From Saprospiraceae bacterium (GTDB lineage: Bacteria > Bacteroidota > Bacteroidia > Chitinophagales > Saprospiraceae): DNA of 64,000 nt. Both the position numbers and the translations under genes were made by a program. The number at the start of each line of letters is the position of its first letter. Within the stretch, counting starts at the first letter, position 1. Positions 1,405 through 64,000 of the stretch are shown here, in pieces. The stretch is from the NCBI GenBank assembly GCA_026986005.1, contig JALSPK010000003.1, forward strand, positions 300 through 64,299, written 5' to 3'. The notes beneath the pieces are model-generated. The model was not told where the DNA came from. It made no database searches and saw only the letters and a list, made by a program, of their open reading frames with translations.

Positions 1405-1451
1405 TAGTGTCTGTCTATAAAGTCGTCAAAATTGAAAAAATAATCTTTTCG
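1405..1451 (+). repeat. Partial (5' arm) copy of the MITE-like element found at 15230-15559
   Basis: tagtgtctgtctataaagtcgtcaaaattgaaaaaataatcttttcg aligns with the first ~47 nt of the 164-bp element (tagtgtctgtccacaaagtcattaaaatataaaaataatcttttcg). Similarity is lost after that point. Confidence 0.6.
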
Positions 1452-1508
1452 TTATATCATATAACTACACAGATAGGAGCATTTTGGCTGAAAAACGTTC
1501 TTTTTGCA

Positions 1509-1673
1509 TTAAAATTTATCAATACGAAAAGCCCTGTCGGTTGCTTGAGCTTCAACAGCCGGATTCCACCACAAATCGTAATGAATTACATGAACGCTAC
1601 CTTTATGATAATAGTCATTTCTAACAGCTGTTGCCAAATCAGGACAATCATTGAAAATTGCACTTAGGTCCCT
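1509..1673 (-). pseudogene. Remnant of an SNF2-family helicase C-terminal domain (motif VI region)
   Basis: The minus-strand translation reads [51 protein letters not shown]. The block [21 protein letters not shown] matches SNF2 helicase motif VI (yD.WWNPa.E.QA.DRahRIGQ). There is no start codon, a stop lies just upstream in frame, and further out-of-frame fragments (e.g. EEFFKAFKILKEIASV) lie up to about 1800. Confidence 0.5.
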
Positions 1674-13452: not shown

Positions 13453-15042
13453 CTATTTTGAAACACTCTCTGCTGATCTAAAAATCCTGTTCCAGTTAAT
13501 CCCTTCAGACATATTATTATTCTTAGTAGAAAACCAAATAAATAATGGCTTGCCTACAATATGATCTTCAGGCACAAATCCCCATGATCGTGAATCCTCA
13601 GAATTGTGTCTATTGTCCCCCATAGCCCAATAATAATTTTGCTTAAAAGTATATTTATCCGCTTTATTTCCATTTATGTAAATATCATTTCCTTTAACAT
13701 TTAGATCATTGTGCTCATATGCATCAATAACCCTACGATACAACGGCAAATTCTCTACTGTTAAATCTACGGTAACACCTTTTTTTGGTATCCAAATAGG
13801 ACCATAATCATCTAAACTCCATGAATGAAAATACTTTTTATTATTTGGAAAAAGCGAAGGATCAATTTCATTCTTAACTACCTCTATCGCATTTTCTCCA
13901 CTTAGTTCCTTTATTTTTTTCACTTGTCCATCATTTAAAAAATATATCATACCTCGCCCGTATGCACTTTTCACACCCCACTCTTCCAGTTTTTTCCTAT
14001 TAATCTTCAGAGGCCTCCTTGCTATGTATTTAAACTGTCTGTGAATAGGTGATTTTTGTGCAACTCCATTAATATATAAAACTCTATTTTTTATTTGAAG
14101 ACTATCTCCTGCTTGTGCCACACAACGCTTTATATAGTGGTCTTTTTTATCAACAGGTCGCACTATTATTTCTTTATTTTTGACTTTAGCTCTTAATTCA
14201 GGATCGTACTTCAAGTAATCTGTCAAATTCTGATGAACTTGATTATAGGAATATGATCGTCTGGATGTGAGATAAATACTATCTCCCGCAGGCCAATTAA
14301 AAACAATCAGCTTATTTCTTTCTACATTTTCAATAGCTTTAAATCTAAAATAAGGCAAACTGGGCTTTTTCAAATACGACTCTGTATTGATAAATGGAAT
14401 CCTATTGTGGAGCAATGGAAACATTGCAATAGTCATAGGAGTACGAATACCATAATGCGCCTTACTCACAAAAAGGTAATCCCCGACATCCAAAGAACCT
14501 TCCATAGAAGGTGTCGGTATTACATATGCCTCAATAAGAAACATTCTTATGAAAGCTGCAGCAAATATTGCAAAAGTCAAAGACTCAACCCACTCTCTCC
14601 ACAATGGCCTTTTAAAAGGATTATTAAGCATTAATTTGTTATACTCTCTTTTATTTCCACTTTTTTGAGCTTCAACTATTTTCTTATTAATTTCCTTTTC
14701 TTGCTTCGCCGCAGGTCCCACATAGCTTGTATTTTTATCAAATGCTATTAAGAAGAAAGCAATCGGTGCGTAAAAAAACGACAGAACACTCCATTTGAAA
14801 TCGTACTTACCAAAAGACTTCACCAAGTCAATTGCCATAGACACGAATGCAAAAAGATTAACAATAGGTACAAAAAACCAAATAACCTTCCACGTAGGTT
14901 TACCAATTATTTTAAATATTTCTATTAGATTCAAAACAGGAACAAGTCCTTTCCATGCCTCTACATTCGCCTTTGGAAAGAGAAAATACAAACTTATACT
15001 AAAAAGTATATAAAAAACAAAGATAAATACTAATAAACTCAT
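13453..15042 (-). CDS. lepB: Signal peptidase I with an N-terminal membrane extension
   Basis: Catalytic Ser box PTPSMEGSL, Lys box KRCVAQAGD, and GDNRHNSEDSRSWGFVP. About 140 aa of extra N-terminal TM region, as is common in Bacteroidota LepB. Confidence 0.9.
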   Translation of the reverse strand: MSLLVFIFVFYILFSISLYFLFPKANVEAWKGLVPVLNLIEIFKIIGKPTWKVIWFFVPIVNLFAFVSMAIDLVKSFGKYDFKWSVLSFFYAPIAFFLIAFDKNTSYVGPAAKQEKEINKKIVEAQKSGNKREYNKLMLNNPFKRPLWREWVESLTFAIFAAAFIRMFLIEAYVIPTPSMEGSLDVGDYLFVSKAHYGIRTPMTIAMFPLLHNRIPFINTESYLKKPSLPYFRFKAIENVERNKLIVFNWPAGDSIYLTSRRSYSYNQVHQNLTDYLKYDPELRAKVKNKEIIVRPVDKKDHYIKRCVAQAGDSLQIKNRVLYINGVAQKSPIHRQFKYIARRPLKINRKKLEEWGVKSAYGRGMIYFLNDGQVKKIKELSGENAIEVVKNEIDPSLFPNNKKYFHSWSLDDYGPIWIPKKGVTVDLTVENLPLYRRVIDAYEHNDLNVKGNDIYINGNKADKYTFKQNYYWAMGDNRHNSEDSRSWGFVPEDHIVGKPLFIWFSTKNNNMSEGINWNRIFRSAESVSK

Positions 15043-15229
15043 ATCACTAATAATATTTTATGGTAGATTAATGTCAAATCGTATTAAATTCGTTCAATTA
15101 AATAAATAGCTGTTTTCCCATCTAATAAATGCAAATATCAATACGAATCAATATAACAAACCGCAAAGGTAGTAAAAAATTGCAAAGACAATTAATAATT
15201 ATACAAGACTAAATATTAAATCGACAAAA

Positions 15230-15393
15230 TAGTGTCTGTCCACAAAGTCATTAAAATATAAAAATAATCTTTTCGCGGTATTTTTACTTTATTCAAATTA
15301 CTGATGCTAAGGCATCACTAATTCTCAGAAAGATTAAAATCTCATCAAAAATCTTTATTTTTCAAAAATCAAGCACTTTATAGACAGACACTA
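15230..15393. mobile_element. MITE-like 164-bp palindromic element, copy 1
   Basis: Terminal inverted repeats tagtgtctgtccacaaagt ... actttatagacagacacta. Internal hairpins tgatgc-taag-gcatca and aaagatt..aatcttt. No ORF. Confidence 0.7.
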
Positions 15394-15395
15394 AT

Positions 15396-15559
15396 TAGTG
15401 TCTGTCCATAAAGTCATTAAAATATAAAAATAATCTTTTCGCGATATTTTTACTTTATTCAAATTACTGATGCTAAGGCATCACTAATCCTCAGAAAGAT
15501 TAAAATCTCATCAAAAATCTTTATTTTTCAAAAATCAAGCACTTTATGGACAGACACTA
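15396..15559. mobile_element. MITE-like 164-bp palindromic element, copy 2 (head-to-tail with copy 1)
   Basis: Differs from copy 1 at 4 positions by hand alignment. It has a perfect 19-bp TIR (tagtgtctgtccataaagt / actttatggacagacacta) and is separated from copy 1 by 2 nt. Confidence 0.7.
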
Positions 15560-15570
15560 ACTAAAGTCAT

Positions 15571-16437
15571 TCATTTATCTACCGGTTCAATATGTATATT
15601 GATATCAATCTCTTTAAATTCATGATTGATGGCATCTTCTATCTCGTCACACAAATCATGTGCAACTTTGACCGTAGTGCTATTAGGAAATGAAAGGATG
15701 AAGTCCAAATACTTTTGAGAACCGGATTTACGTGTTCGAACCCTTCTGTAACTAATTTCAGCATCTTCCTTAAGGCTTGAGCTAATGATTTTACTAATCA
15801 TTTTTATTTCTTCCTCAGGCAACTGTGCATCTACCAAAGGAGAAAATGCATTATTCAGCAATTCAAAAGATTCATAAATGATAAGTAAAGCGACTAAAAT
15901 AGCTATTATTGAATCAAGCCAAGTGTATCCCGTTAAATATATCAACAAAAATCCTATTGCGACCCCCATTGATGTGTAAACATCAGTTTTCAAATGCAAC
16001 GCATCAGCTTTGAGAGCAATAGAATCATACTCCTCAGCTACGACATAAAGCTTTCTTGACACAAATATATTAACTACCATCGACACAAGCATTACAAAAA
16101 TACCATAATGAATATTTTTAATTATGGAGGGATGCTGAAGTCTATCTACCGCTTCATAAATAATCCACAATGCAGCTATAAAAATCAATAATGCCTCAAG
16201 TACTCCTGACACATTTTCATATTTACCATGCCCATATGGATGATCCTTGTCAGGTGGTTTTGATGCGATTTTTACCGAAAAAAAAGCGATAATCGAAGCC
16301 AATAAATCAATTCCCGAATGAATAGCCTCCGACATCATACTCACCGAACCTGTAAATATCCCCATTACCATTTTCAATACAATCAAAAACAGATTGGAAA
16401 AAATTGATAATCGAGCTGTCTTTATTTTTACATTCAT
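15571..16437 (-). CDS. Cation diffusion facilitator (CDF) family metal efflux transporter
   Basis: 288 aa, six TM segments. HSGIDLLAS...DKDHPYGHGKYE and LHLKTDVYTS match CDF signatures. C-terminal cytoplasmic domain present. Confidence 0.9.
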   Translation of the reverse strand: MNVKIKTARLSIFSNLFLIVLKMVMGIFTGSVSMMSEAIHSGIDLLASIIAFFSVKIASKPPDKDHPYGHGKYENVSGVLEALLIFIAALWIIYEAVDRLQHPSIIKNIHYGIFVMLVSMVVNIFVSRKLYVVAEEYDSIALKADALHLKTDVYTSMGVAIGFLLIYLTGYTWLDSIIAILVALLIIYESFELLNNAFSPLVDAQLPEEEIKMISKIISSSLKEDAEISYRRVRTRKSGSQKYLDFILSFPNSTTVKVAHDLCDEIEDAINHEFKEIDINIHIEPVDK

Positions 16438-17958: not shown

Positions 17959-18017
17959 AGCATCTGTCCAATAAGCTATCAAAATATAAAAATAATCTTT
18001 TTGTGCTATTTTTACTT
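17959..18017 (+). repeat. Degenerate partial copy of the MITE-like element (5' arm)
   Basis: cagcatctgtccaataagctatcaaaatataaaaataatctttttgtgctatttttactt aligns with the first ~60 nt of the 164-bp element, with several mismatches. Confidence 0.45.
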
Positions 18018-35908: not shown

Positions 35909-35989
35909 TAGTGCCCGTCTATAAAGTGCTTAATTTTTGAAAAAATAAAGATTAGTTTTAAATTTTAATGACTTTATAGACATACACTA
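35909..35989. mobile_element. 81-bp internally deleted, inverted copy of the MITE-like element
   Basis: tagtgcccgtctataaagtgcttaatttttgaaaaaataaagatt is the reverse complement of the right arm of the 164-bp element. ttaatgactttatagacatacacta is the reverse complement of its left arm. The TIRs are retained and the middle is missing. Confidence 0.65.
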
Positions 35990-62116: not shown

Positions 62117-62189
<73 letters not shown>

Positions 62190-62513: not shown

Positions 62514-64000
62514 CTATTTTTTAATCATAACTTTAGAACTTACACCCTTTTCTGTATACACACTTATAATGTATGAACCTGCTACTAAATTTTTTGTATT
62601 TAATTTTTCAGAATATAAGTTTTTCACAGCATTATTAATATATGTATTTCCTAACATATCATTAACTGTAATATTGTAGATCTTATCTTCTGAAGAAATA
62701 TTTACCGTATTCTCAATTGGATTTGGATAGATATTAAAATTATTTACAATAATATCATTAACCCCAACAGATACTTTATCCCCAAGTCTAAAGTCATCCA
62801 TTTGGAATGACAGTTCATACTTGCCGGGATATTTTACTGTTTCAAACAATATCGCTTCGATGTAACTAAAGTCCCCGGGAGGTATTACACCATTCCACAT
62901 TGGTTTACCAATATTTGCATCAAAATCAAATACGTACTCGTGCCATTGCCCATCTGCAGGAACTAAGAAATTTGGACTATCTACCATTCTTACTAGGGTA
63001 TTTGTACTGTCTGAACCCCAAGGAGAGGCTAAAAATAATACAGAATCGACAGCCTCACCATCATATGTCGCACCAGTTGCAACATTTAATTTCACACTCA
63101 TCAATCCATTATCTGTTAGATTAAATGCTATTTTATCTTTATCAGCAAAGTTAAAGAATTGTCCATCCCAAAAGTTCTTTTGTTTTATTGAGTAATTCAA
63201 CTCTTCATTTTCTTGTGTCACAGTTACTATAGGACTTCCATCATCGTGTGTACCTCTATTACCCAACCATAAATCCATATTGACATCACTAGAAAAATCT
63301 TGTTCATATCCAGTCAACAATTGTGGAGGAACAGCAGATGCTCCTAACTTGAAGTTGTCCATTTGGAATGATAATTTATATTTACCCGGATACTTTACTG
63401 TTTCAAATAATATCGCTTCTATTTGGCTGAAATCTCCCGGAGGTATTTCTCCATTCCACATTGGATGTCCAATATTAGCAGCAAAATCAAATGTGTATTC
63501 ATGCCATTGACCATCAGCAGGAACTAAAAAATTTGGACTATCTACCATTCTCACTAATGTACCAGTACTGTCTTTTCCCCATGGTGAAGCGAGGAATAAT
63601 ACTGAATCTACAGCTACACTATCATAAGTCGCTCCCGGTGCTACATTTAATCTGACACTCATCAATCCATTTTCTGTCAAATCAAATACAATATTTTTAT
63701 TCTTCTTAAAATTGAAGAATTGTCCATCCCAAAATGCATTTTGATCAACTGTATAATTCAAATGTCCATCCTTTTGCTCTACTGTAAAAATTGGTGTACC
63801 GTCAGGATGTTTTCCTGTATTTCCCAACCAAAGATCCATGTCGGCGTCTTGTGAAAAATAGTTAGTATATGTAGTCAAAACAGTAGGTGGAACAGCAGCT
63901 TGCCCCAACTTAAAATCATCCATTTGAAATGATAGTTTATATTTACCCGGATACTTTACTGTTTCAAATAATATCGCTTCTATTTGGCTGAAATCTCCGG
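62514..64000 (-). CDS. T9SS type A cargo protein built from tandem ~187-aa CBM-like repeats; the 5' end lies outside the window
   Basis: The reading frame stays open to the window edge, so the ATG at 63923 is internal (it starts a repeat unit). The C-terminus NIYPNPIENTVNIS...GSYIISVYTEKGVSSKVMIKK matches the type A CTD. Confidence 0.85.
   Translation of the reverse strand, partial: GDFSQIEAILFETVKYPGKYKLSFQMDDFKLGQAAVPPTVLTTYTNYFSQDADMDLWLGNTGKHPDGTPIFTVEQKDGHLNYTVDQNAFWDGQFFNFKKNKNIVFDLTENGLMSVRLNVAPGATYDSVAVDSVLFLASPWGKDSTGTLVRMVDSPNFLVPADGQWHEYTFDFAANIGHPMWNGEIPPGDFSQIEAILFETVKYPGKYKLSFQMDNFKLGASAVPPQLLTGYEQDFSSDVNMDLWLGNRGTHDDGSPIVTVTQENEELNYSIKQKNFWDGQFFNFADKDKIAFNLTDNGLMSVKLNVATGATYDGEAVDSVLFLASPWGSDSTNTLVRMVDSPNFLVPADGQWHEYVFDFDANIGKPMWNGVIPPGDFSYIEAILFETVKYPGKYELSFQMDDFRLGDKVSVGVNDIIVNNFNIYPNPIENTVNISSEDKIYNITVNDMLGNTYINNAVKNLYSEKLNTKNLVAGSYIISVYTEKGVSSKVMIKK
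62802..64000 (-). repeat. 561-bp tandem coding repeats (two full units plus the start of a third)
   Basis: Unit boundaries fall at 62801/62802, 63362/63363 and 63923/63924 (each unit begins MD[DN]F[KR]LG). Positions 63921-64000 are almost identical to 63360-63439. Confidence 0.85.

Follow-up and report, generated by a model that had tools for sequence, protein, structure and literature searches.

Correia elements have roles in their hosts, where they provide promoters and sites of RNase III processing. Like the repeat family described here, the Correia/NEMIS elements of Neisseria, the RUP elements of Streptococcus pneumoniae and the MITEs of Porphyromonas gingivalis are small and noncoding, carry inverted repeats and lie between genes, and bacterial MITEs also resemble it in having a short duplication in a TA-containing target, hairpin transcripts and both deleted and nested forms (PMC4596501, PMC2575886). 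REP and BIME sequences are a further point of reference, being likewise abundant intergenic palindromic repeats that often sit at the 3' ends of genes. Our literature search found no description of MITEs in Saprospiraceae, and no paper with the present repeat sequence except as unrelated primers. Here, we describe a family of 164-bp repeats that are very probably MITE copies, selfish DNA dispersed over a few hundred sites of one Saprospiraceae genome, and we use the ends, target sites and relatives of these copies to place the family among known mobile elements.

The window, a stretch of 64,000 nucleotides, is contig C3 of genome G000, a Saprospiraceae MAG of 3.8 Mb in 220 contigs with 32% G+C and 96.9% completeness. 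At positions 15230-15560 Tandem Repeats Finder reports an array of period 166 with 2.0 copies and 97% matches, which comprises two elements and the bases between them, set between two genes on the same strand:

13453-15042, minus strand: signal peptidase I (Peptidase_S26 + DUF5684), lepB, downstream of the pair by transcription, its start 187 bp from copy 1
15230-15393, plus strand: MITE copy 1, 164 bp, inverted repeats TAGTGTCTGTCCACAAAGT / ACTTTATAGACAGACACTA, 97.6% identity to copy 2
15375-15414, minus strand: terminator-like hairpin to which copy 1 contributes its right end and copy 2 its left, a perfect 18-bp stem and then T-rich GCTTGATTTT (consensus match)
15394-15395, no strand: spacer AT, 2 bp, between the abutting element ends (direct reading)
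15396-15559, plus strand: MITE copy 2, 164 bp, 19-bp inverted repeats without mismatch, used as query to recover the family
15571-16437, minus strand: CDF cation-efflux protein, upstream of the pair by transcription, its stop codon 11 bp from copy 2

The original prediction, which described two 164-bp units with four differences, perfect 19-bp inverted repeats in the second unit and no ORF in either, was accurate overall, and its observation of the pair is confirmed in all details. The unit coordinates are exact and the copies differ at exactly four positions (14, 49, 94 and 153); on direct reading, the terminal inverted repeats of copy 2, TAGTGTCTGTCCATAAAGT / ACTTTATGGACAGACACTA, match perfectly over 19 bp, those of copy 1 have two mismatches, and stop-free stretches across the two copies reach 46 codons at most.

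It had also taken the units for members of a dispersed family, and copy number across the genome agrees. A BLAST search of the whole genome with copy 2 gives 281 non-overlapping matches on many contigs; allowing up to four mismatches, the 19-mer has 419 matches, where a reversed-sequence control has 27. About 49 of these copies are full-length at 164 bp, with 80-100% identity and a mean of 94% to the consensus, and the 19-bp terminal inverted repeats are conserved throughout the 49. An inverted-repeat search of the genome places paired ends in two size clusters, at 50-90 bp and around 164 bp; 41 internally deleted elements fall in the 50-99-bp bins, and beside these deleted forms of 50-90 bp the copies include tandem pairs and nested composites. 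In total the family occupies no less than 21.6 kb (0.57%) of the genome, and with 28 contig ends lying inside it the family accounts for many contig breaks of the assembly. According to crude ORF calls made for this report, on which the stop-codon counts given below are also based, 42 of 44 copies are wholly intergenic in a genome that is 88% coding. A second abundant, short and palindrome-rich repeat stands at about 20 contig ends of the same assembly (for example C100, C116, C125, C138, C171 and C17), with motifs that include GTTTCAAATAAATTTGAAAC and GGACTTGAAAGCATGCTATAGCGTGACTTCAAAGCCGGCTT; it also occurs inside one MITE copy, at C43:36314-36731.

The flanks of the full-length copies define both the target and its duplication, as had been proposed as a check on the original prediction. 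A logo of the 49 copies reads (C)-T-A-N-N / element / N-N-T-A-(G), with T and A at positions -4/-3 in 44 of 48 copies and at +3/+4 in 46 of 49. The dinucleotides adjacent to the element are identical on both sides in 34 of 48 copies, compared with 21% expected by chance, leaving 14 of the 48 without identical flanking dinucleotides. The duplication is accordingly of 2 bp within (C)TA-NN-TA(G). A 6-bp TANNTA duplication around an element counted from GTG is formally equivalent where the target is TA-NN-TA, and two cases with half-sites other than TA favour 2 bp: a copy at C14:7606 reads TC AT / MITE / AT CA, with outer half-sites that are not TA and element tips that still are, and a related insertion sequence (IS) at locus L186 reads CTA AT / IS / AT GG, with an outer half-site that is not TA and an IS tip that still is. 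Within ISNCY, the ISDol1 group is listed by ISfinder as having 6-7-bp direct repeats; these would presumably equal the MITE and IS junctions described here if counted as TA+NN(N)+TA.

Since the element starts with TAG and finishes with CTA, every junction again reads CTA-NN-TAG, and each insertion rebuilds a full target site. Two consequences follow from a rebuilt target, namely a head-to-tail pile-up of elements with 2-bp spacing and harmless landing on stop codons, with the protein unaltered. Element-to-element junctions in the genome number 20 at a spacing of 2 bp, two at 0, one at 1 and none at 3-8. A stop codon adjoins 13 of 44 copies (30%) as against 9% of permissible TANNTA sites, the neighbouring stop being the element's own terminal TAG in eight copies and the outer TA half-site in five more. 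In the mechanism that we propose, a DDE transposase encoded by an IS and supplied in trans would recognise the terminal inverted repeats of about 20 bp, TAGTGTCTGTCCATAAAGTC, and would insert the element at (C)TA-NN-TA(G) with duplication of the two central bases; the self-rebuilt target would then give head-to-tail arrays exactly two bases apart, as in the window.

The window pair itself could have formed in more than one way. Copies 1 and 2 are mutual nearest relatives and have four derived bases in common, one of them found in no other copy, which makes them either parent and daughter or the outcome of a local duplication. Local duplication of one copy together with two bases, by unequal recombination or replication slippage, is a possible though decidedly less probable origin: it agrees with the close relationship of the two copies at 97.6% identity and with flanking dinucleotides (AA / AT / AC, in which the duplication is not preserved) that lack the X-X-X pattern expected from insertion at a junction. 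A daughter landing beside its parent would, however, give the same sister relationship, and we read the AA / AT / AC flanks as favouring neither insertion nor local duplication. Moreover, other tandem pairs are not sisters, the pair on contig C65 having the pattern AC / AC / AC and members closest to copies on other contigs, and the exact 2-bp spacing of the 20 junctions is found also in full-length IS relatives elsewhere, which argues that it is a property of the transposase. For the window pair we infer that one copy inserted beside its sister, in preference to a local duplication. As the C65 pair is non-sister with an X-X-X pattern and the window pair are sisters, both routes occur.

Three other copies lie inside the window:

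1405-1524, plus strand: truncated composite of a MITE 5' arm (1405-1457) and the first 67 nt of a nested second MITE (1458-1524)
17963-18017, plus strand: solo 5'-arm fragment, MITE positions 6-60, 85% identity (BLAST)
35909-35989, minus strand: 81-bp internally deleted copy with both inverted repeats, between arcC and the OTC gene (BLAST and repeat search)

The inverted deletion copy at 35909-35989 had been predicted with both of its repeats, and is real. The two 5'-arm fragments placed at 1405-1451 and 17959-18017 are likewise real, with bounds that BLAST revises to 1405-1457 and 17963-18017. The first of them extends to 1524 as a composite, its 1405-1457 part having 85% identity to MITE positions 1-52 (BLAST) and its 1458-1524 part 92.5% identity to positions 1-67 of the second MITE. 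Elsewhere in the window, 561-bp tandem repeats of about 80% identity occupy positions 62789-64000, inside a gene that runs off the end.

The second MITE is about 165 bp long, has inverted repeats GTAACTACACAGATAGA and is nested at position 52/53 of the first. The resulting composite of 328 bp stands with the same internal junction at no fewer than four loci:

C63:8002-8330, C41:4746-5072, C24:1758-2085 and C207:5209-5535 of G000: composite loci

Multiplication of the composite with one internal junction implies that the outer ends alone suffice for spread. The second MITE is almost only found nested, with two diverged free copies at C57:1729-1890 and C93:5416-5576, and at C174:80137-80627 nesting reaches three levels, a third element, ATACCAAATCTCTATCAAGAGGGTG...CTTGATGGCGGTTTGGTAT, lying inside the second MITE inside the first.

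Filled and empty orthologous sites, the comparison of which had been suggested with the original prediction, are both found. The arcC-OTC junction that carries the 81-bp copy in G000 is a spacer of 5-26 bp in six congeners (G001-G006), and in G003 it reads ...ATAT TA TT TA TTAAAAC, a ready target, where the window has ...TA TA / element / TT TA CTAAAA. Three congeners, G002, G003 and G007, lack the 330-bp pair and have about 60 bp between lepB and the CDF gene. This second site is not perfectly clean as an empty site: in G002 (locus L042, G002:C81, positions ~727-790, orthologous to window 15215-15570) it holds a 42-bp stretch, TAGTGTCAGGTCGAAAACACATTAGTGCTACACACAAGACTA, bounded by TAGTGTCAGG...CAAGACTA with ends that resemble the inverted repeats of the family, and from its sequence this stretch may be what is left of a related element that inserted here earlier. 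The reverse case also occurs, a site that is occupied in G005 having no copy in G000.

Dispersal and absence bear directly on the suggestion of a function confined to the lepB-CDF locus, with the elements acting there as small RNA genes or as regulatory sites that bind protein. Such a reading can point to a stable predicted structure and to an intergenic position between two same-strand genes. It is nevertheless very improbable, given that a few hundred copies and fragments are dispersed beside unrelated genes, that the pair is missing at this locus in congeners, and that the elements have no Rfam match and promoter-like sites no commoner than in shuffled sequence; the sole Rfam match in the window is a tRNA at 62117-62189.

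A broader host role has more to be said for it. In this case, the elements would be, or would have become, host-serving structured repeats that terminate, insulate or stabilise mRNA in the manner of REP/BIME and Correia sequences; the idea is compatible with a MITE origin, with selection, rather than transposition alone, keeping the copies. Each unit is predicted to fold as RNA into a hairpin of its whole length, at -58 kcal/mol (folding z-score -10.1) on the gene strand and -43 kcal/mol (folding z-score -8.5) on the opposite strand. The junction of the copies scores as a terminator on the flanking-gene strand (consensus match), a simple scan of that strand finding one terminator-like site in the pair against 0.2 expected in shuffles. 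The 30% of copies that adjoin a stop codon, and the 12 of 42 copies in convergent intergenic regions against about 13% of intergenic length, could also be taken as signs of function, as could a few base pairs in which both partners differ between subfamilies (C-G has become U-A in 14 sequences, for instance). Several of these points have other explanations: the stop-codon association follows from the target, as its half-sites are TAG and TAA; the double changes do not exceed slid-partner controls (up to eight pairs) and amount to a small number of inherited events; and complementarity between the arms is needed anyway if a transposase is to bind at both ends. Furthermore, orientation relative to neighbouring genes shows no significant bias (13 opposite, 8 same), and no Rfam family matches at the gathering score. 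We regard a host-serving role as improbable, and to a similar degree the proposal that the family has been partly co-opted, with copies at stop codons, hairpins that would terminate or insulate between the CDF operon and lepB, compensatory changes in the arms and a source element freely mobile among Saprospiraceae species that live together. Most likely, the effect on the host is little or none. A read-through transcript would nonetheless hold two predicted hairpins of about -58 kcal/mol each, and some termination or insulation of read-through transcription from the CDF operon is possible on these folding predictions. On the MITE reading, several hundred short repeats, here and in related genomes, can be masked and named, and need not be mistaken for regulatory elements or small RNA genes.

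The absence of a transposase from the window, as originally predicted, holds for the whole of contig C3: profile searches of the genome with rve, DDE_Tnp_1 and DDE_3 give matches only on C217, C187 and C36. The transposase-like genes on these contigs (IS3-type on C217, a weak match on C36) have no matching ends. A 517-aa DDE_Tnp_1 transposase ORF spans the whole of C187 (1625 bp), which probably represents the copies of an IS from another family collapsed into one contig, with the ends unassembled. Pairs of inverted repeats 1-4 kb apart in G000 were rejected as candidates as well, since they enclose housekeeping genes between solo copies and no transposases, and the repeated contig ends of this genome comprise the MITE and one other short repeat, with no IS among them. 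An IS630-type partner had been suspected from the TA-rich target and Tc1-like ends; the copies in G005, G246 and G328 end differently, in CTAGTACAGCG..., and IS630-type (DDE_3) elements at G005:C150:1783-2919 and G246:C275:399-1556, with inverted repeats CTAGTACAGCGTT..., are unrelated to the MITE, although they occur in genomes that have it.

The tip TAGTGTCTGTC is common to other MITE families, of 135-147 bp, in other Saprospiraceae genera, with 350 matches in G306 and further occurrences in G120, G188, G246 and G328. All inverted-repeat pairs examined in G188 and G306 are MITEs of 135-147 bp, and these two genomes were set aside as IS sources. An IS with this tip is also present in G328 (MAG Saprospiraceae bacterium EUL_115), where 15 or more contig ends break off some 50 nt into it. 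Its two distinct ends (e.g. L056-L063) read ...CCATTTAGTAAAAACACCTACGC and ...CCATTTAGTCAAGAAAAGAATCGC; the interior of this IS is unassembled, and scans of two collections, of genome and metagenome contigs, returned only those contig ends or nothing.

A complete partner came from metagenomes. In a scan of metagenomes, the first 27 nt of the MITE match 44 loci, nearly all in JGI metagenome Ga0256833, the source of the MAG, and the exception is one short contig from another metagenome (locus L138, Ga0187867_10086167). This contig carries a complete IS of 1628 bp whose right end matches the MITE for 27 nt and whose flanks read ...gtcaCTA AT / TAGTGTCTGTCCATAAAC ... TTTATGGACAGACACTA / AT TAAgtat. 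Its single ORF encodes a protein of 449 aa that reaches 359 bits, against a cut-off of 325, with the NCBIfam model NF033593 ('ISNCY family transposase') and also matches Pfam DDE_Tnp_1; with the IS5, IS1182 and IS982 models it falls far below their cut-offs. A second IS, at L168-L171, has 85% protein identity to the first, both ends equal to the MITE over 21 nt, and flanks TTA AT / ... / AT TA. Both the ends and the target are preserved in fifteen further IS copies of 65-68% identity, found in groundwater and other metagenomes, and several of these copies stand head to tail with a 2-bp spacer. Even at 35% identity, two ISRsp17-family copies on Sinorhizobium americanum plasmids have conserved ends, TAGTGCCCGTCCATAAAC.../...GGGCACTA, and target, sitting in TTA GC / ... 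/ GC TAG and TTA GTC / ... / GTC TAG. Ends, target and short duplication kept across these relatives imply that they are properties of the whole IS family, which the window element bears.

The transposase gene with the same inverted repeats that had been sought as a check thus exists in other samples and is absent from this assembly. The search for an NF033593-family transposase in G000 (96.9% complete, 220 contigs) found none, the 300 other Saprospiraceae genomes gave only distant matches of 26-28% identity, and viral contigs held no relative of the transposase. Contigs of multi-copy ISs are commonly lost from MAGs and may have been lost here in binning, a general point that does not count as evidence for such an IS in this organism. 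Beyond about 27 nt, the arms of the MITE show weak resemblance to the recovered IS ends, so that simple deletion of the recovered copies does not account for the MITE and its direct parent is a different, unrecovered member. That this parent belongs to the ISNCY family (NF033593), with the ISRsp17 family as nearest named relative, appears highly probable, and we infer that a transposase of the L138 type would move the MITE. The element is noncoding and shorter than about 600 bp, with inverted repeats, a target duplication, dispersed and polymorphic copies, and ends in common with a transposase-bearing IS; the MITE reading of the original prediction is borne out by the copies, the duplications, the empty sites and the ISs with the same inverted repeats in other samples.

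The family is also present in G005, a congener from the same metagenome as G000. Its copies have the same target and duplication, diverged flanks and sites that are mostly other than those of G000, and in a tree the copies of the two genomes intermingle in both subfamilies, with between-genome identity of up to 97.6%. At arcC-OTC, DNA identity to G000 is 71-76% for G005 and 77-81% for G002 and G003. Vertical descent cannot explain the contrast between copies up to 97.6% identical and host DNA of 71-76% identity, and mis-binning is not the explanation because the flanks in G005 have diverged. The simplest reading of these identities is that an active source element would have been transferred recently between co-resident species, and near-identical copies in two species of one metagenome are a marker of recent DNA exchange.

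Compared with known systems, the window element fits poorly with the REP-like alternative that the original prediction had entertained, as its size, inverted repeats and duplications do not agree with it. REP and BIME sequences are imperfect palindromes of 20-40 bp that have no target duplications and depend on a Y1 (RAYT) enzyme, whereas the element is 164 bp long with inverted repeats of 19-21 bp, a 2-bp duplication and ends in common with a DDE-type IS. The Correia, RUP and P. gingivalis elements differ from it in their unrelated sequence, in having another parent IS family and in a single TA as target, in contrast to the bipartite TA-NN-TA here. With the ISNCY/ISRsp17 elements the likeness extends to the terminal pattern, TAGTG(T/C)C(T/C)GTCCATAAA as one tip and ...CACTA as the other, to the target (C/T)TA-NN(N)-TAG and to the short duplication, which is GC and GTC in the two Sinorhizobium copies and AT in L138 and L168. 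The head-to-tail layout with a 2-bp spacer is also found in ISs of the NF033593 type. The difference is one of content, these ISs being 1.63-1.68 kb long with a DDE transposase of 443-449 aa and the window element 164 bp with no ORF. The data thereby describe a little-studied (NF033593/ISRsp17-like) group of ISNCY through its ends, its bipartite TA-NN-TA target, its 2-bp duplication and a target that renews itself, a group from which separate MITE families have arisen in several genera of Saprospiraceae. Set beside the described MITEs, the present one is solidly documented and ordinary in its biology; of more interest are its self-renewing target and its exchange between species.
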